Shown: positions 1,217 to 64,000 of the stretch, piece by piece
Layout of the letters: each line of letters begins with the position of its first letter
Position numbering within the stretch: position 1 is the stretch's first letter
DNA from: Eledone cirrhosa
Lineage: Eukaryota
Direction of reading: 5' to 3'
DNA length: 64,000 nucleotides
Assembly (NCBI GenBank): GCA_964016885.1
Contig: OZ024740.1
Location: forward strand, 375,596,001-375,660,000
Notes under the pieces: generated by a model
What the model was told of the DNA's origin: nothing
Database searches by the model: none
Seen by the model: only the letters and a program-made list of their open reading frames with translations
Program-made: the position numbers and the translations under genes

Positions 1217-1396
1217 TATAAATATATATATATATTTATATTTATTAATATATATTTATATTTATTAATATATATATCTATATATATATATATATATCTA
1301 TATCTATATATATATATATCTATATATATATATCTATATATATATATATCTATATATCTATATCTATATATATATATCTATATATATATATTTATA
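1217..1396. repeat. Degenerate (TA)n/(TATC)n microsatellite
   Basis: Directly visible; separates two tail-to-tail PLE copies. Confidence 0.95.
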
Positions 1397-1417
1397 TTTA
1401 TTAAAATAACAGATTAA

Positions 1418-1468
1418 AGTTTAAGCAAAGAATCACTGCTTTCACCCTTAACGGGATCTTCTTAAACT
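1418..1468 (-). ncRNA. Hammerhead copy in 3' pLTR with C3A change (probably inactive)
   Basis: Reverse complement of the 1052-1102 motif with core AAGAAGA. Confidence 0.5.
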
Positions 1469-2411
1469 AACAAAGTCAATCTGTAAACGCAGAAGTGGAT
1501 ATTTCAAAAAACGTTGCAACCGGAGGAAGATAGGAAGACGATTCTTTGGTTCGTGGAAACGTTCCCTGGCAAAGAACGGGAAAAAAACGAATATAATACG
1601 TCATTAATAGGAGCGGTGAAAAACAATTACGCACAAAGACAGAACCACGTTTATGGTATAAAAGAAGTCGTAGACTAATGTTCTGTTAGGTGGTTCATAG
1701 AGACGTTCTCTGGCATTGAACGGATAAACCGAAGATTATACGTCATATGTGGAGCGTGGAGAACAATGACACGCAAAGACAAAACCACGTAAATGGCATA
1801 GCTGACGTCGTAGACTAAATTTTAACTAGGAAACCGAATGAATCTCCGCTTCAGAGTTAAGAATAAAGTAAATAAATACAATACAGAGGAAATAGAAATT
1901 AAATAAATGCATACGCACATGCAAATACGTATATACACAAGCATATGCAAAACACTTTCCATAGATATACAAAACCACGCACATATAAATATATGTCTGT
2001 GTGTGTGTGTGCGTGTATACAAATAAATAAATAATTAAATAAACGTATATAAATAAATACATACGTATATAACAAGCGCACACACATACCAACATGTAAA
2101 TACACATATGTTCGGAAACGTAAGTCAACAAAACATGAATACACAAATACACACACCCTACATACGTTCGAACCTGCATACTCACGCAGACGCAAATATC
2201 CCGTATACACATAACGAAACCATATGTACCAGAATATATAAAAAATGTATACGCCATAACATAAACAATCAAATATACGTATGAGAAAGTATACGTACCT
2301 TCACAAAACATACAGGTAATATATACTTACCTATGCAAATAAGTAATGGTATAAACAAAACATATACTTAGCTACCACATCAAGACGTAACATATCCACG
2401 TATAGATCGTA

Positions 2412-4489: not shown

Positions 4490-4643
4490 GATGAATATAA
4501 GTCAATAGAGTGCTCAACCGAGCGAGCCAAGTAGTAATAATAATAAATTTGAAGACTAAAATCCAAAGAGGGCTCGATAAGGATAAATATATATCAAATA
4601 TATAATAACCGTAGAGCAAATATTTATTAAAATAACAGATTAA

Positions 4644-5340: not shown

Positions 5341-5398
5341 TTCATTTACCAGTCGTTTCTGGAAAGCAAACAAATCTGCTTTCAGTCATCAGAATGAA
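5341..5398 (-). ncRNA. Type I hammerhead motif
   Basis: TTCATT-CTGATGA-ctGAAAGCA..TGCTTTCca-GAAAC gactg GTA-AATGAA. Same family as 10156 and 10574. Confidence 0.7.
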
Positions 5399-9865: not shown

Positions 9866-9909
<44 letters not shown>

Positions 9910-9916
9910 TATATAT

Positions 9917-10302
9917 ATGTGTGTGTTTGTGTTATTATGTGTATGTGTATGTATATTCATGTGTATATATACATATAAACATATGTATATATGTGTGTGT
10001 GTGTGTGTCTCTGTGTGTGTGTGTGTATATGTGTGTATGCATGTGTTTATATACTTATATATTTATTATCTTTGTCTCTTCTGCCTTCACCCTCTCTTTC
10101 ATATTCCTTATATTTTTGTTTTGAAATCCACATTCGATAAAAACACCAGGATATTTTCATTCTGATGACTGAAAGCAGATTTGTTTGCTTTCAAGAAAGG
10201 ACTGGTAAATGAAATAATTATCTCGTGTTCTTTATTACTATTAATCTCTGTAACCTACATAGAGCACTCTTTTTTCCTGGACCTTTCCGACGGAATTACT
10301 TC

Positions 10303-10350
<48 letters not shown>

Positions 10351-10720
10351 TTGTGTTATTATGTTTATGTGTATGTATATTTATGTGTATATATACATAT
10401 AAACATATGTATATATGTGTGTGTGTGTGTGTCTCTGTGTGTGTATGTGTGTGTATGCATGTGTTTATATACTTATATATTTATTATCTTTGTCTCTTCT
10501 GCCTTCAGCCTCTCTTTCATATTCCTTATATTTTTGTTTTGAAATCCACATTCGATAAAAACACCAGGATATTTTCATTCTGATGACTGAAAGCAGATTT
10601 GTTTGCTTTCAAGAAAGGACTGGTAAATGAAATAATTATCTCGTGTTCTTTATTACTATTAATCTCTGTAACCTACATAGAGCACTCTTTTTTCCTGGAC
10701 CTTTCCGACGGAATTACTTC

Positions 10721-10725
<5 letters not shown>
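9917..10725 (+). repeat. Two tandem ~418 bp units, each with a hammerhead motif (10156-10213, 10574-10631)
   Basis: Near-identical units with TTTCATT-CTGATGA...GAAA..GTA-AATGAAA, separated and flanked by (TA)n. Confidence 0.85.
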
Positions 10726-10751
<26 letters not shown>

Positions 10752-13907: not shown

Positions 13908-15601
13908 GTCTTCTCACATAAAATATAATGACTTTCAAAAAACCATTCATCCTAATACTCCAATATATGTTAACAACATTACTAACAAAATCCCTAATAA
14001 TCAGACTAAAACACCCAAATTAGTTAATCTAACGAAACCTATATATGATAAATTCACTAATAGTAACTCTCTTAGTAATCCTGATACATCGTACAAATAT
14101 AAATAACAATATCAAAACCGTAATAGACGGGTTACTTGGTATAATGCTCCATTAATCTACAAATTAAAGATAATATCCCTAAAATGTGTTTACTATCCTA
14201 GAGAAAAACTTCCCGCCAAACCATAAATACCATCAAATTTTAAATGGATCAACTATCAAATTTTCCTACTCCACTGCCAAAAATATACAACAAAATATAA
14301 GTGCGTACAACGCATATAAATGTAAAAAAAACGACGAATATACCACCTACACATCAAACCAACCATAATACTAAAATAAACCGCAACAAACCACCATCTG
14401 CTGCACATATATCAAGTCAAATACATTCCACGCCAAATTTGACTAACTCCCCCGATATAATATTCACGAATGGTTGTAACTGTAGAAACAAATGAAATTG
14501 CCCATTAAAGGGAAATTGTCTTATTAAGTACATAGTCTATAAATGTAAAATTAGCACTAAGGACTCCACTTATTCATATATAGGAGCTACGTCTAACCAA
14601 TTTAAAGTAAGATTTAATACCCACAAACATAGTTTTTAAAATGGCGCATTAGCTAATACAACATCCTTGGCTGAAACAATTAATAATTATAGAAAAAAGA
14701 ATATCGATTACAACCTGACCTGGAGTGTGCTCAAAAGGGCCACCCCATATCAAAATAACAGATACGAGTGTAGATTATGTTCCCAGGAACATTTTGAAAT
14801 AATGAAACCTAGGGATATTCTATTAATAAGCGACAAGAATTAATTATATCTTGCAATCATAGAATTAGAAGAACTTTCAAATATTATAAACCTAATTAAT
14901 ATACACCTTACACTTATATTTTACATATTATTATAATTAGTTTTTTTTAATTTAGTTAATCTATAATTAGTACTTTACTACAGAGAACTTCTTAATTTTA
15001 TTTCCCTCTTACAGCTCTATTTTCCTAAAATTAATACCTAAAAGTATACATATAAATTAATTTAATTTCCTGTTACGAATCTAGATTCCTTGTAGTTTAT
15101 ATAAGATTGGTATTTCTAACTACTACCCTTATCCCAAAATTTTATTTTCCTTCGTTTTTAACAACATTCTTTAATAACATCTAATTCTTATTTATCACAT
15201 CCATATCAAGTAATATAAATGTATCCCTATAAGTATACCTATCAATTAATTGAATTTCTTGTTATAGATCTAGATTCCTTGTGGTTTAAATAAGATTGGT
15301 ATTTCTCACTTACCCCAAAATTTTACTTTCCTTCGTTTTTAACACTATTCTTTAATAACATCAAATGTTCCTGTACCCTTCACCGGCTTGACCTCTTTTC
15401 ATCCCCAAAGTATTCTTTTCATTCAAAGTATTATTTCTATTCAAAACATACGTCTGCACCCCTCTACCCCTAAATTACATTTCTACTACTACTATTCTAT
15501 CAACTTGACCTCTTACTACTTTTCTATTGGTCAATTCAAAACCTGTTCCCAAACAGACCTATTATATTAAATCTTTGTTGGTTTTTTTCAATAAACAAAT
15601 C

Positions 15602-15968: not shown

Positions 15969-17015
15969 GAAGATAAGTCAAATTAAATTTGTTTGTGCGA
16001 ATCAGGTGGCCTAACGAAATATAATATGGAAGATTGCTTCGCAAATGTTTTTCTCGGTGTGTTCTTTGCAAGGCATACGGTATTAATCCAGTTAAATATA
16101 TTTGTTCCTCTGACCAAACATACCAGCCTTCCTGGTAACATACTGATTATACTGGTTCGTACGTATGTTGGGTGTGTGTATATGTGTACTTCATGTTTTG
16201 GTTGACGTACGTCTCCGAACATTTGTGTATTTACATGTAGGTATCAGTGTGCCCTTGTTATATACGTATTTATTTATTTATTTACGTTTATATAATTACT
16301 TATTTATTTGTATACACGCACACACACACATATTTATATGTGCGTGGTTTTGTATACCTATGGCGAGTGTTTTCGCGTATGCTTGTGTATGTACGTATTT
16401 GGATGCGTGTATTTATTTATTTAATATCAATTACCTCTGTATTGTATTTTATTTACTTTATTCTTAACTCTGAAGCGGAGAATCATTCGGTTTCCTAGTT
16501 AGAATTTTAGTCTACGACTTCAGCTATAACTTTTACGTGGTTTTGTTTTTGCGTGCAATCGTTCTCCACGGTCCACATATGACGTATTATCTTCGTTTTG
16601 TACTTTCATTGCCAGAGAACGTCTCTATGAACCACTTAAGAGAACATTAGTCTACGACTTCTTTTATACCATAAACTTGGTTCTATCTTTGCGTGTAATT
16701 GTTTTTCACTGTTCCAAATAATGACGTATTATATTCGTTTTTTTCCGTTCTTTGCCAGGGAACATTTCCCCGAACCAAAGTATCGTCTTCCTGTCTTCCT
16801 CCGGTTGCAGCGTATTTTGAAATATCCACTTCTGCGTTTACAGATAGACTTTGTTAGGTTCAGAAGATCCCGTTAAGGGTGAAAGCAGCGACTCTTTGCT
16901 TAAACTTTAATCTGTTATTTTAATAAATATTTTCTCTACGGTTCTTATATATTTGATATATATTTATCCTCCTTATCGAGCCCTGTTTGGATTTAATCTT
17001 CACATTTATTATTAT

Positions 17016-17020
<5 letters not shown>
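15965..17020 (+). mobile_element. PLE 3' UTR/pLTR fragment, same family as 1-1216; hammerhead at 16856-16906
   Basis: 16158-17020 aligns by eye with ~355-1216; flanked by (TA)n. Confidence 0.85.
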
Positions 17021-17054
<34 letters not shown>

Positions 17055-17104
17055 AAAGTTCTATTTAAAATTGTTGGGATACAATATAGTATATATATAT
17101 ATAT

Positions 17105-17250
17105 AACGAAGGAAGTTTTTTAAGGAAGCAGATGGACGACAACGCACCAGAGTACTCAATACTTAGGGTAGCAGAGTGGGTAATGGGAAAATGTTTAGTA
17201 CAGAAATAGCCGTCGAAACGGCTTGAGCTCTGCCGTCGGGTTTAAATATG
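17105..17250. repeat. Short fold-back dispersed repeat (family of 54771-55070 and 55538-55713)
   Basis: Shares aacgcaccagagtactca..gtgggtaat.ggaaaa and gagctc.gccgtcggg segments in opposite orientations. Confidence 0.7.
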
Positions 17251-17325
17251 TTCATCTCTCTGTCTCTGTCTCTCTCGCTCTCGCTCTCTCTCTCGCTCTC
17301 GCTCTCTCTCTCGCTCTCTCTCTCG

Positions 17326-17429
<104 letters not shown>

Positions 17430-17594
17430 CGGGTAAAATTCCCGAGATCCATGGACGAGTTCTCTCCAGCGGTCTCTGTCCCTCATTATCGCTGCCATAT
17501 CCTGCATCTCCAACAGACCAGTGTCTATCCTTAGGGCATCAACATATGTTAACCTTGGTCTTCCTCTTCTAGTGTGTCCATGTAGGGGCTCCCA
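17430..17594 (-). mobile_element. RTE-type LINE 3' fragment
   Basis: WEPLHGHTRRGRPRLTYVDALRIDTG..MRDRDRWRELV, a typical RTE ORF C-terminus. Confidence 0.8.
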
Positions 17595-18544
17595 ATATAT
17601 ATATATATATATATTTAGAAGAAAATTATTTAGAAGTGGTAATGTTGCTACGAGGAACCACCATTTGGTAGAAAGATATGATATTTATATCGACAACGAC
17701 TTTAGCTTGTTTTTACATAATTTATTAACAAAGGTTAAGAAGTGAATTAAGCTGGCATGCCAAGAGAAATGAAATAATTCAATTAAGATTACAAGAGAAC
17801 ATACGGTCGACTGGCTGAAGCGTTTGGCCAGGTCCGTAGTAATGTTTTGTCTTTACATATTGTTTGTGCTTGTGGAGCAAAAGAACAAGTGGTGTTTACC
17901 TTAGCATTGTCAAGCTGCAAGAGAGAGATTCTTCAAATCTTCACGGGTAATCTCTCCCCTCAGGACGCGTAGGGATACATCCTCTTCTACTGGCGCTGAT
18001 TGGCTGAGCTGAGCCATATCACGCACAGAGAATGTATGTGAGCCCGCGGAATGTAGGTCACTACATATATAAATCAGGATAGAACCAGTTGAAAACAAGT
18101 TAGGCCAGTACTTAGCAGAATACTTGATACTTGGTATAGAGAGAGTATGGTTATATTATAAAGTTTCGGGACTTCAGTGCTGATCTCTTGCCGTTTCAAC
18201 AGCTAGTTTTGTTCTAGACGGCTATGGAAAATACTATGCCAGTGCATATTACTGTAGAAAATCTGACTAAATGCGTTACATCATTTATATTTGATGTTCT
18301 TAGACAGCAATCTTGTATCCAGCTTTCAAACATGAATTGACAGTCTTAAGAAGCGAAATCACAAATGGAAAATGTATGTACTTTTAGATGTATAAACATG
18401 CGACATATCTCAGTAGAAATACAGCTAGACATATGCTTGTTTACTATACTTAAATATATTCTATATGTCTATATTTTGAATCACGCTGAGGTAGTGCTCC
18501 TCATGATATACTTGGGTCAACCTAGGGCAGCTATTCCAGAGGCG

Positions 18545-25941: not shown

Positions 25942-26823
25942 ATCATCATCATCATCATCTTCACCGTTTTACGTCCGTTCTTCCACGCTAGCATGGGTTA
26001 GACGGGTTGTCCTGTTGTGGGCAGTGTCTGGTCGGCTTACCATGCCTTGCTCATACAGGAACTGATTTGGCTTGATTTCTACAGCTGGATGCCCTTCCTA
26101 ACACCAACCTCATTTACAGTGAGTGCTGGGTGCTTTTTCGTGACGCCTACACGTCCACTTTACAGTGTGGGCTGGGTGTTTTCTTGCCGTGGCACCTCCA
26201 CGACCACCTTGCGGTGGGGGGGCATATCGTCTATATGCTTCAGCTTGTACCCATGGGAGGTCGGGTACTCTGTATTACTGCGTGACGCCAGAGGTCACGG
26301 TCGTGTGTCATCACCTTTGAGAGGTGTAATTGGGTAAGGTCGGCTTTTATCACCTCATCCCAGGTCATCTTAGGTCTCCCCACTCCGCGGTTTCCATCAA
26401 CTTCTAGTGCTCTGCACCTTTTTATGCAGCTGTCATCCTTCATACGCATCATATGTCCATACCAGCGCAACCGGCTCTCCTGCACACAGCATTTGATTCC
26501 TTTTATGCTCAGTCTCTCTCTCAATTCATTTATGCTTTGTCGTTCACGTATAATACTGTTACACATCCATCGAAGCATGCAGGCTTCGTTTCTCTCTAAT
26601 GTACGTAAGTCTTCCACCTTCAGCGCCCAGGTCTCACTACCATGCAACATTGCTGTTCGGATACACGCATCATACAGTCTGCCTTTCATTCTGAGGGAGA
26701 AGCTTTTTGCAGCTAGCAGTGGTAGTAGTTCCCTAAACTACTTCCATCCCGTTGATACCCTAGTTATTGTAGTTTTTGAACACCCACCTCCGCTGGTAAT
26801 TCGGTCACCTAGGTAGCAGAAGC

Positions 26824-38739: not shown

Positions 38740-38775
<36 letters not shown>

Positions 38776-38783
<8 letters not shown>

Positions 38784-41700
38784 CAAATAACGAAACGAAA
38801 TTAAATTTCGTTTCGTTTGTAACTCACTTTTGTATGACTGACGCTTAAACAATTAAGTTAAAAATGTACATCCACATATGTATACTGAAATACTAGTATG
38901 CATATGAATACACACACGTATACATATGTAGATGTACCAAGTCTTTCACTGGTTACTTTACTGTGAGTATCCAGCTATTCTGTATGTAAACACACAGACA
39001 AACCGGTTTTTAGAGTCATACTGGTTTTTGAGGAAACACCTTTCCTCTATTCTCCAGAAAGCCAGACATATGCATACTAGTATTTCAGTATACTTATGTG
39101 GATGTACATTTTTAACTTAATTGTTTAAGCGTCAGTCATACAAAAGTGAGTTACAAACGAAACGAAATTAAATTTCGTTTCGTTATTTGTTTTTATCGTC
39201 TCCGTTGAACCGGTACGTACTCACACTCTATGCAAATTAGTCTGCCCACTACTAATTTTCATAGAAAAAGCATATAACGATATGTGCTTTTACGATTCTC
39301 CAGAAAGGCCGGTAGATAGGTAAATATTGCTGATAAGTTGTAACAACAACGAAACTAGTTCAATATTCTTTGTCTGGCTTTCAGAAGAATAGAGGAAAGG
39401 TGTTTCCTCAAAAAACCAGTATGACTCTAAAAACCGGTTTGTCTGTGTGTTTACATACAGAATAGCTGGATACTCACAGTAAAGTAACCAGTGAAAGACT
39501 TGGTACATCTACATATGTATACGTGTGTGTATTCATATGCATACTAGTATTTCAGTATACATATGTGGATGTACATTTTTAACTTAATTGTTTAAGCGTC
39601 AGTCATACAAAAGTGAGTTACATACGAAACGAAATTTAATTTCGTTTCGTTATTTGTTTTTATCGTCTCCGTTGAACCGGTACGTACTCACACTCTCTGC
39701 AAATTAGTCTGCCCACTACTAATTTTAATAGAAAAAGCATATAACGATATGTGCTTTTCCGATTCTCCAGAAAGGCCGATAGATTGGTAAATATTGCTGA
39801 TGAGTTGTAACAACAACGAAACTAGTTCAATATTCCTTGTCTGGCTTTCTGGAGAATAGAGGAAAGGTGTTTCCTCAAAAAACCAGTATGACTCTAAAAA
39901 CCGGTTTGTCTGTGTGTTTACATACAGAATAGCTGGATACTCACAGTAAAGTAACCAGTGAAAGACTTGGTACATCTACATATGTATACGTGTGTGTATT
40001 CATATGCATACTAGTATTTCAGTATACTTATGTGGATGTACATTTTTAACTTAATTGTTTAAGCGTCAGTCATACAAAAGTGAGTTACAAACGAAACGAA
40101 ATTTAATTTCGTTTCGTTATTCGTTTTTATCGTCTCCGTTGAACCGGTACGTACTCACACTCTCTGCAAATTAGTCTGCCCACTACTAATTTTCATAGAA
40201 AAAGCATATAACGATATGTGCTTTTACGATTCTCCAGAAAAGCCGATAGATAGGTAAATATTGCTGATGAGTTGTAACAACAACGAAACTAGTTCAATAT
40301 TCCTTGTCTGGCTTTCTGGAGAATAGAGGAAAGGTGTTTCCTCAAAAACCAGTATGACTCTAAAAACCGGTTTGTCTGTGTTTACATACAGAATAGCTGG
40401 ATACTCACAGTAAAGTAACCAGTGAAAGACTTGGTACATCTACATATGTATACGTGTGTGTATTCATATGCATACTAGTATTTCAGTATACTTATGTGGA
40501 TGTACATTTTTAACTTAATTGTTTAAGCGTCAGTCATACAAAAGTGAGTTACAAACGAAACGAAATTAAATTTCGTTTCGTTATTTGTTTTTATCGTCTC
40601 CGTTGAACCGGTACGTACTCACACTCTATGCAAATTAGTCTGCCCACTACTAATTTTCATAGAAAAAGCATATAACGATATGTGCTTTTACGATTCTCCA
40701 GAAAGGCCGGTAGATAGGTAAATATTGCTGATAAGTTGTAACAACAACGAAACTAGTTCAATATTCTTTGTCTGGCTTTCAGAAGAATAGAGGAAAGGTG
40801 TTTCCTCAAAAAACCAGTATGACTCTAAAAACCGGTTTGTCTGTGTGTTTACATACAGAATAGCTGGATACTCACAGTAAAGTAACCAGTGAAAGACTTG
40901 GTACATCTACATATGTATACGTGTGTGTATTCATATGCATACTAGTATTTCAGTATACATATGTGGATGTACATTTTTAACTTAATTGTTTAAGCGTCAG
41001 TCATACAAAAGTGAGTTACATACGAAACGAAATTTAATTTCGTTTCGTTATTTGTTTTTATCGTCTCCGTTGAACCGGTACGTACTCACACTCTCTGCAA
41101 ATTAGTCTGCCCACTACTAATTTTCATAGAAAAAGCATATAACGATATGTGCTTTTCCGATTCTCCAGAAAGGCCGATAGATTGGTAAATATTGCTGATG
41201 AGTTGTAACAACAACGAAACTAGTTCAATATTCCTTGTCTGGCTTTCTGGAGAATAGAGGAAAGGTGTTTCCTCAAAAAACCAGTATGACTCTAAAAACC
41301 GGTTTGTCTGTGTGTTTACATACAGAATAGCTGGATACTCACAGTAAAGTAACCAGTGAAAGACTTGGTACATCTACATATGTATACGTGTGTGTATTCA
41401 TATGCATACTAGTATTTCAGTATACTTATGTGGATGTACATTTTTAACTTAATTGTTTAAGCGTCAGTCATACAAAAGTGAGTTACAAACGAAACGAAAT
41501 TTAATTTCGTTTCGTTATTCGTTTTTATCGTCTCCGTTGAACCGGTACGTACTCACACTCTCTGCAAATTAGTCTGCCCACTACTAATTTTCATAGAAAA
41601 AGCATATAACGATATGTGCTTTTACGATTCTCCAGAAAAGCCGATAGATAGGTAAATATTGCTGATGAGTTGTAACAACAACGAAACTAGTTCAATATTC

Positions 41701-44700
41701 CTTGTCTGGCTTTCTGGAGAATAGAGGAAAGGTGTTTCCTCAAAAACCAGTATGACTCTAAAAACCGGTTTGTCTGTGTTTACATACAGAATAGCTGGAT
41801 ACTCACAGTAAAGTAACCAGTGAAAGACTTGGTACATCTACATATGTATACGTGTGTGTATTCATATGCATACTAGTATTTCAGTATACTTATGTGGATG
41901 TACATTTTTAACTTAATTGTTTAAGCGTCAGTCATACAAAAGTGAGTTACAAACGAAACGAAATTAAATTTCGTTTCGTTATTTGTTTTTATCGTCTCCG
42001 TTGAACCGGTACGTACTCACACTCTATGCAAATTAGTCTGCCCACTACTAATTTTCATAGAAAAAGCATATAACGATATGTGCTTTTACGATTCTCCAGA
42101 AAGGCCGGTAGATAGGTAAATATTGCTGATAAGTTGTAACAACAACGAAACTAGTTCAATATTCTTTGTCTGGCTTTCAGGAGAATAGAGGAAAGGTGTT
42201 TCCTCAAAAAACCAGTATGACTCTAAAAACCGGTTTGTCTGTGTGTTTACATACAGAATAGCTGGATACTCACAGTAAAGTAACCAGTGAAAGACTTGGT
42301 ACATCTACATATGTATACGTGTGTGTATTCATATGCATACTAGTATTTCAGTATACTTATGTGGATGTACATTTTTAACTTAATTGTTTAAGCGTCAGTC
42401 ATACAGAAGTGAGTTACAAACGAAACGAATTTAATTTCGTTTCGTTATTTGTTTTTATGGTCTCCGTTGAACCGGTACGTACTCACACTCTATGCAAATT
42501 AGTCTGCCCACTACTAATTTTCATAGAAAAAGCATATAACGATATGTGCTTTTACGATTCTCCAGAAAGGCCGGTAGATAGGTAAATATTGCTGATGAGT
42601 TGTAACAACAACGAAACTAGTTCAATATTCCTTGTCTGGCTTTCTGGAGAATAGAGGAAAGGTGTTTCCTCAAAAACCAGTATGACTCTAAAAACCGGTT
42701 TGTCTGTGTGTTTACATACAGAATAGCTGGATACTCACAGTAAAGTAACCAGTGAAAGACTTGGTACATCTACATATGTATACGTGTGTGTATTCATATG
42801 CATACTAGTATTTCAGTATACATATGTGGATGTACATTTTTAACTTAATTGTTTAAGCGTCAGTCATACAAAAGTGAGTTACAAACGAAACGAAATTTAA
42901 TTTCGTTTCGTTATTTGTTTTTATCGTCTCCGTTGAACCGGTACGTACTCACACTCTCTGCAAATTAGTCTGCCCACTACTAATTTTCATAGAAAAAGCA
43001 TATAACGATATGTGCTTTTCCGATTCTCCAGAAAGGCCGATAGATAGGTAAATATTGCTGATGAGTTGTAACAACAACGAAACTAGTTCAATATTCCTTG
43101 TCTGGCTTTCTGGAGAATAGAGGAAAGGTGTTTCCTCAAAAAACCAGTATGACTCTAAAAACCGGTTTGTCTGTGTATTTACATACAGAATAGCTGGATA
43201 CTCACAGTAAAGTAACCAGTGAAAGACTTGGTACATCTACATATGTATACGTGTGTGTATTCATATGCATACTAGTATTTCAGTATACTTATGTGGATGT
43301 ACATTTTTAACTTAATTGTTTAAGCGTCAGTCATACAAAAGTGAGTTACAAACGAAACGAAATTTAATTTCGTTTCGTTATTCGTTTTTATCGTCTCCGT
43401 TGAACCGGTACGTACTCACACTCTCTGCAAATTAGTCTGCCCACTACTAATTTTCATAGAAAAAGCATATAACGATATGTGCTTTTACGATTCTCCAGAA
43501 AGGCCGATAGATAGGTAAATATTGCTGATGAGTTGTAACAACAACGAAACTAGTTCAATATTCCTTGTCTGGCTTTCTGGAGAATAGAGGAAAGGTGTTT
43601 CCTCAAAAACCAGTATGACTCTAAAAACCGGTTTGTCTGTGTTTACATACAGAATAGCTGGATACTCACAGTAAAGTAACCAGTGAAAGACTTGGTACAT
43701 CTACATATGTATACGTGTGTGTATTCATATGCATACTAGTATTTCAGTATACTTATGTGGATGTACATTTTTAACTTAATTGTTTAAGCGTCAGTCATAC
43801 AAAAGTGAGTTACAAACGAAACGAAATTAAATTTCGTTTCGTTATTTGTTTTTATCGTCTCCGTTGAACCGGTACGTACTCACACTCTATGCAAATTAGT
43901 CTGCCCACTACTAATTTTCATAGAAAAAGCATATAACGATATGTGCTTTTACGATTCTCCAGAAAGGCCGGTAGATAGGTAAATATTGCTGATAAGTTGT
44001 AACAACAACGAAACTAGTTCAATATTCTTTGTCTGGCTTTCAGGAGAATAGAGGAAAGGTGTTTCCTCAAAAAACCAGTATGACTCTAAAAACCGGTTTG
44101 TCTGTGTGTTTACATACAGAATAGCTGGATACTCACAGTAAAGTAACCAGTGAAAGACTTGGTACATCTACATATGTATACGTGTGTGTATTCATATGCA
44201 TACTAGTATTTCAGTATACTTATGTGGATGTACATTTTTAACTTAATTGTTTAAGCGTCAGTCATACAGAAGTGAGTTACAAACGAAACGAAATTAAATT
44301 TCGTTTCGTTATTTGTTTTTATGGTCTCCGTTGAACCGGTACGTACTCACACTCTATGCAAATTAGTCTGCCCACTACTAATTTTCATAGAAAAAGCATA
44401 TAACGATATGTGCTTTTACGATTCTCCAGAAAGGCCGGTAGATCGGTAAATATTGCTGATGAGTTGTAACAACAACGAAACTAGTTCAATATTCCTTGTC
44501 TGGCTTTCTGGAGAATAGAGGAAAGGTGTTTCCTCAAAAACCAGTATGACTCTAAAAACCGGTTTGTCTGTGTGTTTACATACAGAATAGCTGGATACTC
44601 ACAGTAAAGTAACCAGTGAAAGACTTGGTACATCTACATATGTATACGTGTGTGTATTCATATGCATACTAGTATTTCAGTATACATATGTGGATGTACA

Positions 44701-47700
44701 TTTTTAACTTAATTGTTTAAGCGTCAGTCATACAAAAGTGAGTTACAAACGAAACGAAATTTAATTTCGTTTCGTTATTTGTTTTTATCGTCTCCGTTGA
44801 ACCGGTACGTACTCACACTCTCTGCAAATTAGTCTGCCCACTACTAATTTTCATAGAAAAAGCATATAACGATATGTGCTTTTCCGATTCTCCAGAAAGG
44901 CCGATAGATAGGTAAATATTGCTGATGAGTTGTAACAACAACGAAACTAGTTCAATATTCCTTGTCTGGCTTTCTGGAGAATAGAGGAAAGGTGTTTCCT
45001 CAAAAAACCAGTATGACTCTAAAAACCGGTTTGTCTGTGTGTTTACATACAGAATAGCTGGATACTCACAGTAAAGTAACCAGTGAAAGACTTGGTACAT
45101 CTACATATGTATACGTGTGTGTATTCATATGCATACTAGTATTTCAGTATACTTATGTGGATGTACATTTTTAACTTAATTGTTTAAGCGTCAGTCATAC
45201 AAAAGTGAGTTACAAACGAAACGAAATTTAATTTCGTTTCGTTATTCGTTTTTATCGTCTCCGTTGAACCGGTACGTACTCACACTCTCTGCAAATTAGT
45301 CTGCCCACTACTAATTTTCATAGAAAAAGCATATAACGATATGTGCTTTTACGATTCTCCAGAAAAGCCGATAGATAGGTAAATATTGCTGATGAGTTGT
45401 AACAACAACGAAACTAGTTCAATATTCCTTGTCTGGCTTTCTGGAGAATAGAGGAAAGGTGTTTCCTCAAAAACCAGTATGACTCTAAAAACCGGTTTGT
45501 CTGTGTTTACATACAGAATAGCTGGATACTCACAGTAAAGTAACCAGTGAAAGACTTGGTACATCTACATATGTATACGTGTGTGTATTCATATGCATAC
45601 TAGTATTTCAGTATACTTATGTGGATGTACATTTTTAACTTAATTGTTTAAGCGTCAGTCATACAAAAGTGAGTTACAAACGAAACGAAATTAAATTTCG
45701 TTTCGTTATTTGTTTTTATCGTCTCCGTTGAACCGGTACGTACTCACACTCTATGCAAATTAGTCTGCCCACTACTAATTTTCATAGAAAAAGCATATAA
45801 CGATATGTGCTTTTACGATTCTCCAGAAAGGCCGGTAGATAGGTAAATATTGCTGATAAGTTGTAACAACAACGAAACTAGTTCAATATTCTTTGTCTGG
45901 ATTTCAGGAGAATAGAGGAAAGGTGTTTCCTCAAAAAACCAGTATGACTCTAAAAACCGGTTTGTCTGTGTGTTTACATACAGAATAGCTGGATACTCAC
46001 AGTAAAGTAACCAGTGAAAGACTTGGTACATCTACATATGTATACGTGTGTGTATTCATATGCATACTAGTATTTCAGTATACTTATGTGGATGTACATT
46101 TTTAACTTAATTGTTTAAGCGTCAGTCATACAGAAGTGAGTTACAAACGAAACGAAATTTAATTTCGTTTCGTTATTTGTTTTTATGGTCTCCGTTGAAC
46201 CGGTACGTACTCACACTCTATGCAAATTAGTCTGCCCACTACTAATTTTCATAGAAAAAGCATATAACGATATGTGCTTTTACGATTCTCCAGAAAGGCC
46301 GGTAGATAGGTAAATATTGCTGATGAGTTGTAACAACAACGAAACTAGTTCAATATTCCTTGTCTGGCTTTCTGGAGAATAGAGGAAAGGTGTTTCCTCA
46401 AAAACCAGTATGACTCTAAAAACCGGTTTGTCTGTGTGTTTACATACAGAATAGCTGGATACTCACAGTAAAGTAACCAGTGAAAGACTTGGTACATCTA
46501 CATATGTATACGTGTGTGTATTCATATGCATACTAGTATTTCAGTATACATATGTGGATGTACATTTTTAACTTAATTGTTTAAGCGTCAGTCATACAAA
46601 AGTGAGTTACAAACGAAACGAAATTTAATTTCGTTTCGTTATTTGTTTTTATCGTCTTCGTTGAACCGGTACGTACTCACACTCTCTGCAAATTAGTCTG
46701 CCCACTACTAATTTTCATAGAAAAAGCATATAACGATATGTGCTTTTCCGATTCTCCAGAAAGGCCGATAGATAGGTAAATATTGCTGATGAGTTGTAAC
46801 AACAACGAAACTAGTTCAATATTCCTTGTCTGGCTTTCTGGAGAATAGAGGAAAGGTGTTTCCTCAAAAAACCAGTATGACTCTAAAAACCGGTTTGTCT
46901 GTGTGTTTACATACAGAATAGCTGGATACTCACAGTAAAGTAACCAGTGAAAGACTTGGTACATCTACATATGTATACGTGTGTGTATTCATATGCATAC
47001 TAGTATTTCAGTATACTTATGTGGATGTACATTTTTAACTTAATTGTTTAAGCGTCAGTCATACAAAAGTGAGTTACAAACGAAACGAAATTTAATTTCG
47101 TTTCGTTATTCGTTTTTATCGTCTCCGTTGAACCGGTACGTACTCACACTCTCTGCAAATTAGTCTGCCCACTACTAATTTTCATAGAAAAAGCATATAA
47201 CGATATGTGCTTTTACGATTCTCCAGAAAGGCCGATAGATAGGTAAATATTGCTGATGAGTTGTAACAACAACGAAACTAGTTCAATATTCCTTGTCTGG
47301 CTTTCTGGAGAATAGAGGAAAGGTGTTTCCTCAAAAACCAGTATGACTCTAAAAACCGGTTTGTCTGTGTTTACATACAGAATAGCTGGATACTCACAGT
47401 AAAGTAACCAGTGAAAGACTTGGTACATCTACATATGTATACGTGTGTGTATTCATATGCATACTAGTATTTCAGTATACTTATGTGGATGTACATTTTT
47501 AACTTAATTGTTTAAGCGTCAGTCATACAAAAGTGAGTTACAAACGAAACGAAATTAAATTTCGTTTCGTTATTTGTTTTTATCGTCTCCGTTGAACCGG
47601 TACGTACTCACACTCTATGCAAATTAGTCTGCCCACTACTAATTTTCATAGAAAAAGCATATAACGATATGTGCTTTTACGATTCTCCAGAAAGGCCTGT

Positions 47701-47970
47701 AGATAGGTAAATATTGCTGATAAGTTGTAACAACAACGAAACTAGTTCAATATTCTTTGTCTGGCTTTCAGGAGAATAGAGGAAAGGTGTTTCCTCAAAA
47801 AACCAGTATGACTCTAAAAACCGGTTTGTCTGTGTGTTTACATACAGAATAGCTGGATACTCACAGTAAAGTAACCAGTGAAAGACTTGGTACATCTACA
47901 TATGTATACGTGTGTGTACTCATATGCATACTAGTATTTCAGTATACATATGTGGATGTACATTTTTAAC

Positions 47971-47976
<6 letters not shown>
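38776..47976 (+). repeat. Tandem array of 19 ~466 bp hammerhead-containing units (retrozyme-like satellite) with inverted partial unit at the left end
   Basis: HHR cores at 39330, 39797, 40264, 40728, 41195, 41662, 42126, 42592, 43058, 43525, 43989, 44456, 44922, 45389, 45853, 46320, 46786, 47253, 47717 (spacing 464-467). 38776-39068 is inverted. (TA)n on both flanks. Confidence 0.97.
39790..39834 (+). ncRNA. Minimal type I hammerhead ribozyme (representative intact copy; 13 intact and 6 G8A copies in the array)
   Basis: AATATTG-CTGATGA-GTTGT aaca ACAAC-GAA-ACTAGT-T-CAATATT: 7 bp stem I, canonical core, G10.1-C11.1, palindromic stem III, GUU triplet. Confidence 0.92.
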
Positions 47977-48023
<47 letters not shown>

Positions 48024-50029
48024 TATATACATATTCACAATAGATTATTAGAACCGTGGATCGGTCTACGAATTTGGAATATTTATGTTCACAGCTTCAA
48101 TATATATGTTTTACTATAAACTGTAATCAAAGAAATTGGACATAGGGGCAATTGGAATGTGAAAAATGAGCAGTGACCCCAGTTTCACACGAACTTGTTC
48201 TTGTTGTATTCCATGCGCCTATTTTATCATTTCTGCAAACGATGATGACGTATACTTTCCGCTTTTGTAAGCTTTGCCAATGGGCCGGTTATTTAGTGTA
48301 ATGGTAGCACATGAAATGTATCACACATCCACATGATTTTATATATATATATATATATATATACTCTCAGTTTTATTTTTGTAAGAACAAACATAAAAGT
48401 AAATTATAATCACTTAAAAGTATTTCTATTCAATGAGCTTATTCTGAATTCGAAATCACCTGACATAAAAACACACAACTTTATGATCTAGAGTATATGA
48501 TATATGAAGTACGAAACATTATTTGCGATTCGTTGTTTCACTAGTCATTTTTCTTGCATGAAAAGTAAATTTGTGGTATCATTGCAGAATGATTTTTGTC
48601 ATATCAACATCTCATTAGTGTGTTGAAATCTATCCTGTTCATGGAAATTGTTTCTTCGAACAAGGAAATACCTCATGCACAATGTATTTTATGAGATAGC
48701 TATAAGAAGCATTTGCAACATTCGTCTCTGCTTGCTACTGAGGAAGGTAGGTTTTACTGCTATTATGCTGATACGTCCAACATGAAATATTAACGCGAAT
48801 TTTCACAATAAGAAACATAATAATCAATAATGCTTCCATTTTCCTTTAGTGTGCATTTAATATTGGAATTCGTATCCCATGAGAAATTCTTAACTATTTT
48901 AAGCTCGGCAGTTTAAACAGTTTTGAGTAGCACATTCAACGTTAATGTTTTGAAAATATGTTCAGGTTGTGAAAACATCTCCTATCATTTCATCTTCAAT
49001 GTGAGAAAAATGAGGCTTCAATCTCCTTATCCAAAGGATGTTTGCTCATATTTTGAAATATTGTTGTATATTTGCGCTTCTGATCGACAATTACGGCCCG
49101 TTTAAGTAGCACAAATATGGAGGTTTCATTGTATTGCATACTTTATACGACTTTGCTTTTGCACATTCAGCCTTAGCCTATAATAAAACCATTTTGGGTT
49201 TTTTCCATGTCTTTAATTTATGAATGTTATGAATTAATATATCCATAAGCTGATAGGAATATGCGTCGAATATTTATTCCGTGACGAATAGGGAATAATT
49301 ATGAGCATTTCATATTAAGCTTGACGTAATCATCATCTTCAATGAAGAATATATTGAGACAACTTTGGTATGAAGAATAATTAATGTATAGAAAGCTGAA
49401 CAAGCACCGAATACTAAAGTCATATTTTTATTTATATAGATATATGACATAAAATACATTCTTGGATGAGAAAATCAATACACACAATAAGAATGTATAT
49501 GAAACTGAAAAGGCAATAATGTTAAAAAGTTCAATGAATAACATCAAAGTTTATGTCATAATAGTATATATTTGTTATCATGGAAAACAAGATCATATAT
49601 TAAATATATAAAAGTTACTCAGGAGAATAATAAATAAACGGCTTTGGGGTAACGGAAATTAAAATCCATTTGTTAAATATTTCATTATACTTAAATCCAT
49701 TACTTAGCTATAGGTTAGAATATTTGATGTATATGGAAGATCCAAAATTCAAGATGAAATAGGTGAAATGATAATTATACCCCTCGAAAAGAATTTTATG
49801 CCTTCTTTTCCGTGCTTGGAATAATGTATCGTTCGATATTTATAGTGAGCGAAGCAAAATATAAAATACATCACGTAATAATAAGCATCTTTGATTTATA
49901 TACAAAAAATATTTCTTCAAAGTGCATTTCAATTAATATACGCTTACAGATAATTTAGTATAATGTTAAGATAAACGTCAACTGCATGCTTCTATGTATA
50001 CAAATATCATGCACATGTGTATTTACTTA

Positions 50030-51190: not shown

Positions 51191-52751
51191 CTGGAGTCGC
51201 GACCGACTGATAGATATTATTAGCAATTGGAAATACCAACGGAAACATTGTTTCTTCGGTCCGATTTGACGAAAGTCAATAATTCTTTTTTTTTAATCGA
51301 CATTTTTCTAAAAAATACACAGTATACACAATATATGAAAAACATAACTGTGTTTTGCTTCTCATTTTATTATATATCTTTTTTACTCATTACATATCCC
51401 ATTGTTTTTAGGTAGAAAATAACTTAGATTTTTTTTGTTGAATGTTTGAAAATTACGCTTCGCGAATATAATGTTCTGAACTTCATCTTTTACTATATGT
51501 AGTGTGCAACATTGCCATGTGAGATAATTTCTGTGGAGAGCTGGAAAGAATATGTATGGAAGTCTGTTGGATTGATTATACTTGTTATTCAAATGCCCTC
51601 GCTTATACTCGTACACTAATTTCCTTTGGGAATTATGTTAACGAGAATTCGTATCTGTGAAACACTCAACCACTAATCAGTTACTTGGTGAGAAGGACGT
51701 TTATGTGATTAAACAATTGAATGTGCACGATTGAAACCGAAGAATGATTGATCACCACCATTTTGTATATAATTTTTTTATAATTCCGCTTGAATAAGCA
51801 TATTAAGTATCGAAGAATTGCAAGAACCGCTTATATATCATATGAAAATACAACTAAGACATTTCTTTATCTTGTATAGAATTGAAATTATATTAAAATA
51901 GGAGGTGGTTATATCTTGCCAAAATATGATCAACACTACCTATTTGTATTATTCATATGATACTAAGCAAAGAATTTATGGATGGTTGTGCCATTTGGAA
52001 CATCACCTGTTCCTTCATATTCCTCTAGAACAGAAAAGATTACTCAATTTCTACAAGTATGAATATCTTTAAATTTACTGCTGCCAGAAAATCTGCAGGA
52101 AAACGATACTCCTTTAAATATTCCACATACTTACATATTAACAAGGGTGGTATAACTGGATTCAAAGAACGATTTGCAAGGCAGGTTAAGGGTGTTGAAA
52201 ATAAATGAAAAGTTTGGAAGAGAGAAATACAACTAATACTTTCTTGATGCATCTAAATGTCTCAATCATTACATTTTGATTTCAGTTGTACAGAGGTTAG
52301 GAAAATACAAAGTTTAGGCAAGATAAATATATTCTTTCCTTCACCCTCTTCATCATACAGAGGAAAGAAGGGAATTATTAACGAAACACATATGTATCAC
52401 ATTACCGAAAATGATCGGACACAATCATATGAAGCAATAGATATTCATACTTAAAATTGAATACGTGGTATACATATTCATACTCGAAATCCCATAATAA
52501 ATGAAGATGAATAGTAGATAGATTTTGCAAATGCATGGGATTTGCTATCAGAGTTGTATGTATAATTTTGCATATGATGTATTGAAAGCCTAACTGACAC
52601 AACAAGAATGCATATAAACAGAAAGCGTGTGCTTATATATATATTTTTTTTTCTGTGTCTGTGTGAATTGCAGAATCGTTAGGTCGTCGGATAGAATGTA
52701 TTGCCGTATATGTTCCAGTTTCTTGTGCAATAAACTCAGATGATATCGAGT

Positions 52752-54135
52752 CACACACACACGAGTCGAGATTCCTCGATCCAATGAACAGTACTTTTTC
52801 CATTTGTCTCGATCTAGCATTATCACTCTAAGATCCGTTAAATTTCCTCCCGTGTCAGTACACATCATATCCAGATACGTTGTTGCAGGAGGATCTCTAC
52901 TGCTAAGACCGTGTATAGGAATACATAAAAGAACGCGGCGGCGCACTCCTTTTTTGATTTGCAACAATGTCCTGCAAAATGCATCGTTCTTAAACGAATA
53001 ATATCCGAACCAGAAAGATAATCCTGATAGATTTCTACATTTGTGACTCTCCGTGGCCAAATTATGTTGAAAGCGTGTCTGAGGAGACTTGTGTAACATC
53101 CATCTGGTCTTTTTTCGAATGTTTTATTAAGTGTCCATGGTTTTGACGTGTAGAGTAACATACTTTCAGCTGTGGTGTTGAAGAACATATGCTTTAGTCT
53201 CGTTAAGAGAGATGATTGCCATATTCCAATAAGTTTGTTTATGGGCGACCATGTTAAGTCTATTCTGATGTTGATTTCGTTTTCCGTTTCCGAGACATGT
53301 GAAATCAGAAACTTCTTTAAAAGTTTCGCTATTTGAAGCGCTCAGCTGCCCATATGAATTAAATATCATCAATTTGGTCTTGGTCTCATTTATTTCCAAC
53401 ACTGCTTTTATCGCTGCCTGTTCCAGCTAGTGAAATGTGTGTGAACATCTGCTATATTGTATGATATTAGACATATGTCATTCGCATAATTAGTGTCCAT
53501 AAATTAGGAATCCATAAATTTGAAGAATTTTCAGCATTTTCTGTTCATTCATTGAATCGAAGGCTTTTTTAAAGTCTATAAATGTTAAGACTGCTGGAAG
53601 GTTAGTCGACTTGTCGCCCTAAATAATTCGTCTAAGAGTCAACATTTGAGAGATGGTAGAACGACCTTGTCTGAACCTGTTTTGATTAATTATCAATTGA
53701 GGTTCAACATGAGGTCGCATCCTAATCAGCAATATCTTGTTATACACCTTTACTGCGATTGAAGTGAGACTTATTCTTCGATAGCTTTCTGGAAGACTAA
53801 GATTACCCTTCTTGGGAATAGGAATAATGCCAATCTTTGACCATATTTTTGGTTAATTTCCAATGAAAGTCATATTCCAGAAACCGAACGGCTCGTACCT
53901 GAGTGAGCCAACCTTGCACACTCCACCTGGAATTACATCGATTCCAGTAGCCTTGCCATTCGGCAGCTCCCTCGAGTATTCTTTGATCTATTTTACAGTA
54001 AATTCACCGGTATGTATAGAAGGGAACGTTCCGCTGCAAACGCCGAGGTTTAAGAATTCATTGTAATCATCTCCATGGGCTGCTGGAGAGAGGAGCTCCT
54101 CGAAATGCCTTCTCCAGTGAGGAGGACGAGCTTCA
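52752..54135 (-). mobile_element. RTE-type LINE, RT domain to 3' end, decayed
   Basis: GKATGID; IIPIPKKGNLSLPESYRRISLTSIAVKVYNKILL; NQNRFRQGRST; FIDFKKAFDS; ESMLLYTSKPW; FAGHC; MLDRDKWK. Confidence 0.88.
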
Positions 54136-60379: not shown

Positions 60380-60985
60380 TCCAGATTCCAGGCGCCCAGT
60401 CTCAGTCTCTTCTTGAAGATGCCTTAGCCTCAGTACACGTTGGCGCATCCTCAGCTACGGCTTACCTAGTCCTCCGCGTAGAGGAAGAACGCAACAGACA
60501 TATTACATCGCCAATGGAACCTGTCCCTTGCATAACGTAGAAAACAGAACGTTCTAAATTAGCGAAGTACATGTGGGGGCAAGGCACGAGGGTCAGGCGG
60601 TAGTATATAACGGAAGCGATATACACGTTCACCACCTCCTCCAGATCTTTCAGGGATAGCTTCCTCTTTGTCTATTTCTGGATGAGAGAGGCCACACAGC
60701 TCGTTACCTCGAGGACAGCTCCGAAATAAACCCTGAGCAATTTCCCCAGTCCGTTCGTCTAGGCTTCGACGAATCTGTTGAACGGCTTGCATTTGCTCCT
60801 CCAGATGGTGTGCTGCAAATCCACCGATTGTTCTGGGTTCAGTTTGGCTCCCGTCAATCTTTCCTATTCTTCTAGGTGTTCGACAGCTTCACGGGGATTA
60901 CATTCGCATATGCTGACACAGCCTTTCCACGATCCGGTTAGAGCAGGATGCCCTGCAACAGCCCAAGCTTCAATACGTAAAGGCT
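60380..60985 (-). mobile_element. Tx1/L1-clade LINE RT remnant
   Basis: VSAYAN (decayed YADD); ERLTGAKLNP; KLLRVYFG; KRKLSLK..VNVYIASVIYYRLTLVPCP; LPLRGGLGKP*LRMRQRVLRLRHL. Confidence 0.7.
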
Positions 60986-61049
60986 CAGAGTCAATGCGTA
61001 CAGATGAGAGAATTGAGTGGATAGGTGGTCATATTGGGAATGACTATAG

Positions 61050-61715
61050 GATAATGGGTGCTGAGTTAAGATCATTCTCAATTCAAGTCATGAGAGAAAA
61101 ATAATCTTCAGTTCTGCTCTCAGTCGTGAATCAGGAACCCCTAAGTAATCAAAGATACCGAAAAGGTTGAAGTGGTGGGAAGAGTGTACGGTGGAGCAGC
61201 AGTATCGGGTGACCGGAGACTGCTTGCCGGGCAAGATGTCCAGGAGATGTTCGGCAAACCTCTCCCCTAGACGATGACAGGTTTGTCCAATTGTGACAGC
61301 CTCGCATACATTCAACGGAGACCCCAGACAAAGTTGGAGGACTTGCAGCCGAAGGAGTCCATTACTCAGAAATGTTGGTGGTTACGCTCATTGAGGGTGG
61401 TGGTCCTAGAGCAAGTGTTGGGTCCAGGGAAGGGTGCTTGAATGGAGCTATGGGCGAGGTAATATCGAAGGTGGAGTGTGCAATTAACGGAGGGGAAGAT
61501 GTTGGAGATGAATGTGTCCGTCTGGAGCTGTTGAGAAAGCCAGATGTTAGCCATCTGGAGAGGCAATATTTAGATGTGTTTTATAAGGGAAAATGGGTGT
61601 CTATTGTTGGGTGGCCAAGGGCCTGGAATGAGAGTGCGAGTGATTGCAACTTAGATCAGGCAGGGGGATAAATGAACATCAGGCCGAATGATGTGTGTAG
61701 CCAAGATATGTGCCT
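61050..61715 (-). mobile_element. PLE GIY-YIG fragment (Neptune/Poseidon-type), decayed
   Basis: IGQTCHRLGERFAEHLLDI..SPV..HS..RLRAELKIIF; upstream LQTD..IFP..LRYYLAHS. Confidence 0.72.

Positions 61716-62669: not shown

Positions 62670-62675
<6 letters not shown>
61742..62675. mobile_element. ~585 bp unit, partial tandem copy and inverted end; hammerhead-like motif at 61980-62029 (-) and 62548-62600 (+)
   Basis: 61744 and 62329 begin the same sequence. Family of 8771-9865. (TA)n flanks. Confidence 0.78.
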
Positions 62676-62758
<83 letters not shown>

Positions 62759-62763
<5 letters not shown>

Positions 62764-64000
62764 ATGCTTTCGGAGGGTCATGTTGCTAATAAGAAACATA
62801 CGCACTAGTTGCTTTCACTTCCCTTTATTACAAATTAAATTTATAAATTTAGGAATTTATAAATTTCCTGTTGGCTGGTTGGTTCCACAACCAGACGATT
62901 GTTCATATATTGTCAACGTTCTTTCGTCACACATTATGTGACCTATTCAGTGACTGGGGATTATTTTCTTGGTTTTTGTGCCTCTCCATTCTTCTGTCCT
63001 ACGCCATCTTGTTTTTGTGTGTGTTGTGTGCTTAGTTTGCGCATGTGTTACATCTAGGTGTCTGTGTGTGTTTATAATTGTTTATTTATTTGTTTATTTA
63101 CATGTTACTGGTTGGTTATTTGTTCTATGTGTGTGTGTGTTTTTATTTTGTCCTTAATTGTAAGTTGTGATGTTCCTGTTCCATTCATGTTTTCTATTTA
63201 ATTTGTTGGACTTCATTTATTTGTATTGCCTCTGTGATTTGTAGAGTAGATATTAACAATGAGCCAGAGGAAAGAGACAGGAGTAATAATGAGAGACATA
63301 GAAACAACCCTGAGGCTGTTGGTGGAAATAGAAATAGAAAAAACACAACTAACAATGACACTAGCAATAGTACACATAAAGCAGCAGCCTGGAACTCTAT
63401 TTTTTATAATCCTTCCGATATGTACTTCGACCTACGAGGAGTCCACGCCACGACTTTAGCTTTTAACAAACGCACGCAATTGCCGTCGCAGGTCGATGAA
63501 CAAACAAAAGCACAATTTAGTATAGCTAGATCTAAACTTAGAAATATTATAGAACAGTATAGCAAGAAGCAAAATAGAATGGATGCCCAGCAACTGGGCG
63601 AAAAATCTGCAAATGTCTTGCGTATGCTCATGTAGCGCTCGCGTAATGGAGAGTATGCATGCTTTCCAAAAGACAATCTGGCAGAATGTCGCTTGACAGT
63701 CTGTCAAACTACATCCAGGCAATGCAACCCACATCACTAACACAAGAGAAGTAACACCACAAGAGCATGAGAATAGGGAAAAACCCTCAATGCCCATATG
63801 ATGATGTGGACAAATATAATGCAGCCCAACAAGAGGACTGCCAACAAATTCCAGGCCTGGAACAATGTCATGCCAGCGTTGTAAGGGCTTCGAAAAGACC
63901 ATAAAACGAGCAGTGACCCTGTCACAGGACCAACAACACGGCCAGTCTGTGGAGCTAACATTGCTAGTAACTACAGACTTTCCTACTTCCTCTCCCTGAT
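62759..64000 (+). mobile_element. 5' part of a PLE (terminal repeat, then decayed N-terminus and start of RT); runs off the window
   Basis: Ends in MPAL*GLRKDHK..GPTTRPVCGANIASNYRLSYFLS, the PLE RT LYGL.K.HK..RP motif. 62759-62945 matches 5093-5284. Confidence 0.75.

Follow-up and report, generated by a model that had tools for sequence, protein, structure and literature searches.

The window analyzed here, a 64,000-nucleotide stretch of the Eledone cirrhosa genome (GCA_964016885.1, contig OZ024740.1, positions 375,596,001 to 375,660,000), contains a tandem array of 19 noncoding units of about 467 bp, each carrying a hammerhead ribozyme (HHR), and we propose that this array is probably a single insertion of an animal retrozyme family in which the enzyme of a Penelope-like element (PLE) copies one unit-length RNA, itself probably a circle, from two sites. 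The retrozyme class is already known, and what is new is family-wide insertion evidence bearing on the mechanism: the family forms a large and partly very recent set of noncoding insertions that allow ends, arm lengths, and haplotypes to be counted, and the interest lies in this family, not in the window array. That a retrozyme circle gives rise to a new genomic copy has been put forward as a proposal (PMC7229834; bioRxiv 10.64898/2026.07.22.740005), and the way in which PLEs produce tandem and inverted insertions is called open in PMC8557442. If our account is true, one circle-priming mechanism would explain the tail of PLEs together with their inverted copy and tandems, and the insertions would amount to direct evidence from the genome that the circles of animal retrozymes serve as transposition templates and that the family is still active. 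In the literature searched, which lacked Repbase and most subscription papers, neither this family nor a rule of one long and one short end with shared haplotypes was found described; the supplements of PMC8557442 and PMC7229834 could list the family or its PLE.

A search of the 3.0-Gb genome (1,796 contigs) with the exact 39-nt HHR returned 4,933 matches and none for a reversed control, so the motif is not a product of chance; the first 100 matches represent 27 loci, from which we extrapolate, as a rough estimate, about 1,300 loci, and those with the exact HHR are dispersed over many contigs. Insertions were mapped at the window and 81 other loci, one of which (L166) was dropped because its array continues past the stretch on either side; before counting, stray pieces were also removed from L036, L046, L103, and L161. 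Numbered from the predicted HHR cut site, 130 of the 134 outer 3' ends in these 81 loci fall into two zones of the unit, 57 at 220-236 (short end) and 73 at 294-304 (long end). Where both ends could be typed, 55 of 57 loci combine one long with one short end (48 by BLAST-sized arms and 7 by an 8-11-nt motif; p = 2e-14 against 50:50). Alternating TA is entered by 108 of the 130 typed 3' ends, against a background of 4%, and the dispersed copies in (TA)n that a first-pass annotation of the window, made from the letters alone, had anticipated are thereby borne out. Contigs from run X1, possibly the assembly's own sample, have loose ends into TA at 40056, 40061, and 40130, corresponding to positions 229, 234, and 303. 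Sister family B, introduced below, ends at homologous positions and is long plus short in 7/7 inverted loci read by eye; in one further locus, L120, an end lies at neither site.

The inner 5' ends (n = 134), by contrast with these fixed 3' ends, are evenly spread (Kolmogorov-Smirnov p = 0.85), and only 1 of 134 lies at positions 1-3, the cut site, where 0.9 would be expected, so there is no run-off. The 81 loci gave 53 measured inversion junctions: 27 with an overlap of 1-7 nt, 8 blunt, 13 gapped, and 5 with an overlap of at least 13 nt. Arms crossed the HHR junction in 115 of 130 cases, a proportion biased by the choice of loci, and 364 of 368 junctions outside the window show neither indel nor break. 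Neither arm is systematically the longer (20 versus 19 of 39), which is at odds with simple fold-back from a first end that is always the same. In L1 twin priming, a single RNA is primed by both ends of the target, and microhomology joins the resulting cDNAs head to head; there the second site varies and the arms are free of overlap, whereas in our family the two sites are fixed and the overlap between arms can extend over many units. No structure of the long terminal repeat (LTR) type was seen in the 81 mapped loci, in which a primer-binding site and polypurine tract were not searched for. At one locus (L036:1911-2007) a (TA)n tract meets the HHR palindrome exactly at each of its ends, through either priming at a cleaved 3' end or later rearrangement.

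Published PLE insertions comprise partial tandems, an inverted 5' copy, a one-ended tail of 30-40 bp, and (TA)n targets (PMC8557442), and a PLE protein, predicted to be a dimer, has been described that cuts and extends both strands, with two internal starts delimiting the tail (PMC11167929). The endonuclease-bearing (EN+) clades Neptune, Hydra, and Naiad (PMC8557442) and Poseidon PAc (PMC11167929) share with our family the partial tandems, the inverted 5'-truncated copy, (TA)n, the one-ended tail, and two internal reverse transcription (RT) starts; the tail in our family is longer than the published 30-40 bp. This close match of ends, arms, tail, and target makes it very probable that the family is mobilized by a PLE enzyme, and the PLE-type mobilization suggested in the first-pass annotation is now backed by insertion anatomy. 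Noncoding PLE passengers with head-to-tail multicopy insertions are also represented by the nonautonomous MRC1 of Chlamys (PMC8557442); such Chlamys elements, however, mostly lack HHRs and have a 3' end resembling that of an autonomous partner, whereas no partner of that kind was found for our family in the window or the fetched loci.

We envisage that arrays would be transcribed, and that neighboring HHRs would pair via the palindromic ACUAGU and cut the RNA to 467-nt monomers, which would then be ligated to circles. A PLE protein with RT and GIY-YIG domains would nick both (TA)n strands, and one DNA end would prime at ~303 and the other at ~229/234, the end positions observed, each with 1-3 nt of TA microhomology. 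Each cDNA would roll round the template for a random length, after which the two would be joined head to head, mostly with an overlap of 0-7 nt, to give the inverted one-haplotype arms with long and short ends that are seen. In its most specific form, with a PLE dimer priming both (TA)n ends on the same ribozyme-made circle, at the long and the short site, for up to about 30 rounds, we hold this scheme tentatively, at slightly under an even chance. Because the 467-nt template is defined and its two RT start sites are predicted, the questions of the circle template and of the tail are directly testable.

Haplotypes bear on what was copied. Units differ by a median of 2 positions within a locus (24 loci) versus 14 between loci, opposite arms of one locus differ by 0-5.7 (8 loci), and both arms nearly always carry a common haplotype. 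Three two-armed arrays have 18/18, 23/24, and 32/36 identical full units, and the youngest arrays are nearly invariant and long on both arms (6.9+12.9, 17.6+8.0, and 8.7+29.4 units, 29.4 being the longest arm). Because there is neither run-off at the cut nor scarring at the junctions, the template should have been either a circle or an uncut multimer. We judge the circle the likelier of the two, given the repeated fixation of new variants, the conservation of the HHR, and the near-background frequency outside the window array of G8A, a change at a catalytic position: 17 genome matches carry it, 6 in the window array and 11 elsewhere, with ~14 expected from the post-insertion rate. In sister arrays, heterogeneity is too low for shared nonfixed variants to inform. 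Locus-fixed variants are A>G on the RNA strand in 21/61 cases, against 13/158 singletons (L031-L169), with three within 6 nt; adenosine-to-inosine editing of the template is a possible cause of this excess, confounded by G-U tolerance, which gives an equal bias, and at unpaired sites the counts are only 8 A>G against 5 T>C.

Several observations weigh against a ribozyme-made circle primed at two sites. The locus sample is not random, having been drawn as the 38 best matches to the full unit, 27 in position order with the exact HHR (one shared), and 16 by variant, partly for length. One end could not be typed in 24 of 81 loci, and two loci depart from the long-plus-short rule (L103, short plus short, and L151, long plus a doubtful tiny long). 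Inner 5' ends are in mild excess at positions 11-30 (12 versus 5.7 expected; p = 0.013, uncorrected and with the range chosen post hoc), which run-off plus trimming might produce. The perfect homogeneity of long arrays may owe something to assembly polishing. A circle was expected to leave variants with no source array, and this test failed: a 337G/341G/342G haplotype matches 69 times, across 7 loci whose arms, of up to 17.6 units, are possible sources, and a further variant has 288 matches, so that variants are common to small clades. The arrays L155:965-6006 and L161:873-3289 are mosaics of two haplotypes that switch in register within one arm, and template switching or later recombination is needed to explain them. 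Predicted pairs are broken less often by locus-fixed variants (12/61) than by singletons (79/158), a contrast in favor of the account, yet one that is not significant with all A<->G changes taken out (11/33 versus 56/111, p = 0.11). BLAST and an nhmmer profile of the main family (A) and family B found no homologous PLE terminal repeat (pLTR) in the window or the fetched loci. The GUU at which the main subfamily would be cut is a slower cleavage site than GUC or GUA.

To these is added that uncleaved RNA is the main substrate of an anole PLE in vitro, where HHR cleavage is unnecessary (PMC11167929), a result that favors the alternative that survives best: the same double priming by a PLE, with no circle, where a homogeneous source array supplies a long tandem transcript that stays uncleaved. 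Candidate sources, namely long homogeneous arrays, exist, scarless junctions fit equally, and 8 of 9 Xenopus retrozyme dimers stayed uncleaved in vitro (bioRxiv 10.64898/2026.07.22.740005). We nevertheless regard an uncleaved template as rather unlikely, since it requires RNAs with up to 29 uncut ribozymes and, as new haplotypes repeatedly became fixed throughout both arms, a bottleneck of one unit on every such occasion; moreover, a dead HHR should then spread freely, which G8A does not, and the HHR core is kept between families that are only 62% alike. It is improbable that insertions were short, of 1-2 units per arm, made with template jumps on linear RNA that had been cleaved or lightly cleaved, and that all long arrays grew later by DNA duplication. 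Higher-order repeats in the window, periodic variants in one J86_87 arm and in L102, the shortness of most arms (<2 units, medians 531 and 774 nt), and the 5' end excess just described speak for such growth, but the longest arrays occur among the haplotypes of least divergence and extend far on each arm, and junctions are nearly indel-free, unlike those of template jumps. An ordinary satellite that spreads as DNA and carries a fossil hammerhead motif would agree with the decayed and expanded state of the window array (6/19 G8A, higher-order repeats, no 337C offspring), but is scarcely credible. For the family it is already largely refuted: the loci are scattered across many chromosomes and target TA, their 3' ends are of two fixed kinds and their 5' ends random, the HHR helices covary, and divergence is near zero at many of them.

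The ribozyme itself differs from its initial description. All 19 window copies match Rfam Hammerhead_HH9 (33.8-39.3 bits, E 1.9e-6 to 1e-4 at the size of the window), which upholds the identification of a hammerhead in every unit, but every copy scores below the gathering score (52), at which Rfam gives no match; a separate HH9 match with E 3.5e-8 is also below it. In an alignment of 22 HHR sequences (16 distinct) from the main family, its GUC subfamily, and family B, the core and the palindromic ACUAGU are invariant. Helix I has 6 bp with an internal loop and a distal stem, helix II has 4 bp with a conserved 6-nt loop (3 bp below a U-U pair in family B), and helix III is a 2-bp palindrome. 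Seven of 15 pairs are changed on both sides across families, a value reached in 0/500 shuffles, and slid controls pair at 24-46% versus 93% for the alignment; the two-sided changes lie in helices I and II between the main and sister families, and because the sequences form few lineages the independent events are few. On this comparative evidence the HHR is under selection. The minimal HHR of PMC4209133, which is distinguished there from the canonical metazoan type I, has an absent or rudimentary helix III, a helix II of 7-8 bp, a helix I of 4-5 bp, and a poorly defined loop 1. The 6-bp helix I, conserved loop, distal stem, and 4-bp helix II rule out the minimal PLE hammerhead that had been assumed, and as judged by its structure the HHR of the family is a canonical metazoan type I ribozyme that should cut as a dimer. 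Two copies co-folded via the palindrome are predicted to be 3.4 kcal/mol more stable than apart.

The main family shares many features with metazoan non-LTR retrozymes of coral, mussel, and axolotl and with newt satellite 2 (PMC7229834; bioRxiv 10.64898/2026.07.22.740005), namely noncoding tandems with one type I HHR per unit, a GC content below 50%, self-paired RNA, thousands of copies, arrays of up to tens of units, and PLEs in the genome, and its short palindromic helix III is like that of amphibian dimer-cleaving HHRs. The 467-nt unit is above the 150-450 bp of PMC7229834 and within the 51-972 bp of bioRxiv 10.64898/2026.07.22.740005, and a further difference from those retrozymes is the GUU site of the main subfamily. 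Over two units the longest ATG-initiated open reading frame (ORF) has 19 aa on the forward and 71 aa on the reverse strand, which agrees with the noncoding character noted at the outset, and no ORF with RT and GIY-YIG domains was found in the unit, so the element is nonautonomous. None of 100 shuffles is predicted to fold as stably as the unit RNA. At the sequence level, then, the family is an animal non-LTR retrozyme, as the label retrozyme-like had implied. A PLE origin of retrozymes is argued from homology and co-occurrence in bioRxiv 10.64898/2026.07.22.740005; the ends, inverted arms, and tails that we analyzed are not treated in the available portions of that preprint and PMC7229834.

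A looser GUA/GUC pattern gave 31,952 genome matches versus 6 in controls, and among the first 100 of these listed, 89 belong to family B and 11 to the GUC subfamily. Family B (L113:2950-3814, L148, L149, and L116-L145) is about 62% identical to the main family (253/408 aligned columns), has units of 422-538 bp with a GUA site, and is several-fold commoner. The GUC subfamily (89% identical, 411/463; L146-L147, G000:C1, 14.04 Mb) has 469-bp units, 15 HHRs on one arm, a compensatory change in helix II, and likewise one long and one short end. Contigs from runs of three other organisms hold unit pieces at 90-99%. A CACTC..TATGCAAATT stretch at unit positions about 326-345 (window 40153-40172) is kept between families A and B and includes ATGCAAAT, which we take to be an octamer promoter element; the stretch is changed both by 337C, the variant of the window, and in the 337G/341G/342G clade. 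A bacterial promoter scan stayed at chance level, and the method is not applicable here.

The window array (Table 1) is an ordinary, aging member of the family. Its 19 motifs, AATATTG-CTGAT(G/A)A-GTTGT-AACA-ACAAC-GAAACTAGTT-CAATATT, lie at 39323-47754, all on the forward strand and none on the reverse, with a spacing of 464-467 bp; Tandem Repeats Finder (TRF) reports a period of 467 and 97% identity over 19.1 copies, and the tandem count in the first-pass annotation stands, as do the (TA)n tracts on both sides. The tandem had been drawn from 38776 to 47976, which is right from 39067 onward, whereas 38779-39068 is an inverted partial unit that overlaps the forward arm by 2 nt. The variable G/A position of the motif is the catalytic G8, and 6 of 19 copies have A; G8 pairs with C3, and G8C abolishes cleavage (PMC11167929), by analogy with which G8A copies are presumably inactive. 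The core is intact in the other 13, in consecutive runs of 2-3, and RNAs of the array, if transcribed and cut only at intact HHRs, would measure 466-467 nt and 930-931 nt, the latter being dimers that the uniform ~466-nt products first envisaged do not allow for.

Table 1. Coordinates of the retrozyme array and associated features within the 64,000-nucleotide window
Feature	Position	Strand	Remarks
Broken copy of 713-aa PLE	1213-4530	-	Further pieces 1-1401, 14189-14902, 16144-17105
Left (TA)n target tract	38741..38778	.	TRF
Inverted arm, unit positions 11-301 from HHR cut site	38779..39068	-	3' end 38779 = long end, TA-joined
Forward arm, 19.1 units	39067..47976	+	TRF; unit position 174 -> 229 (short end, TA-joined)
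19 type I hammerhead motifs	39318..47757	+	Motif count and Rfam
Predicted HHR cuts 1-10	after 39360, 39827, 40294, 40758, 41225, 41692, 42156, 42622, 43088, 43555	+	
Predicted HHR cuts 11-19	after 44019, 44486, 44952, 45419, 45883, 46350, 46816, 47283, 47747	+	
G8A copies, predicted inactive	HHR copies 1, 4, 7, 11, 15, 19	+	
Example intact HHR	40252..40304	+	Distal stem, loop 1, 6-bp helix I, CUGAUGA, 4-bp helix II, UAACAA loop, GAAA, palindromic ACUAGU helix III, GUU site
Cut-to-cut unit, 467 nt, 35% GC	39828..40294	+	Predicted RNA -152.6 kcal/mol, z -10.2
Putative tail between short (229/234) and long (303) end positions, unit 2	40057..40130	+	Candidate RT start pair
29-nt hairpin within unit 2 tail	40090-40118		
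Right (TA)n target tract	47976..48034	.	TRF

The forward arm has the unit order ABC ABC DEBC DEBC DEBC, in which A is a D/E recombinant, and the block copies differ at 1/1398 positions for the 3-mers and 5-6/1864 for the 4-mers. These higher-order repeats indicate that about four diverged units were amplified as DNA and exclude that the array arose directly from nineteen rounds of RT; duplication of 4- and 3-unit blocks after insertion rebuilt the arm and spread G8A to 6/19. The 18 window units fall into 12 sequence classes, with neighbors differing by 9 positions on average, versus 1-5 classes in the youngest arrays outside the window, which have 18-36 units, so the array cannot be called young as it had been. 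Its variant 337C has 10 genome matches, all within the array itself, and 6 of the 17 G8A copies are there, from which the array is likely a dead end and not a source.

Candidate helpers occur in the window and elsewhere in the genome, and the window PLEs had been offered as mobilizers of the array; they have no sequence similarity to the unit, and because shared targets are expected to bring such elements together in TA-rich DNA, co-location does not name a helper. The 713-aa PLE represented by a broken copy has RT motifs, DKT, CxCx5C, and, C-terminally, a GIY-YIG without CCHH, which match the description of the Hydra clade (PMC8557442). Its protein had no match in Pfam or PDB, so its clade rests on motifs, and the window fragment matched only unnamed Atlas clusters; the C-terminal endonuclease rules out the label Naiad. 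Its insertions have a TA target like those of the retrozyme, with long and short ends about 85 nt apart, and a first look at the genome yielded 24,704 candidates; copies with open ORFs are numerous outside the window. Near its 3' end is a hammerhead-like motif with CAGAAGA replacing CUGANGA. The piece at 14.2-14.9 kb belongs to a more distant PLE family (37% aa), and a second Hydra-like family at L095:4886-7099, with a 738-aa frame 40% identical to the 713-aa PLE, has an HHR-like motif of its own. At 62673-63730 (-) lies a Neptune-like PLE 3' end with a decayed minimal HHR and a (TA)n end, adjoined by an N-terminal PLE-like ORF fragment (+, 63171-63635).

Elsewhere in the window, ORF fragments at 26240-26737 (-), 52590-53341 (-), 17163-17684 (-), and 60559-61671 look like what we take to be RT ends of long interspersed nuclear elements, and those scanned had no Pfam match. 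A 418-bp sequence whose CTGATGA is, according to Rfam, not a hammerhead forms a two-copy tandem at 9882-10751, 97% identical between copies, with a related piece near 5392.

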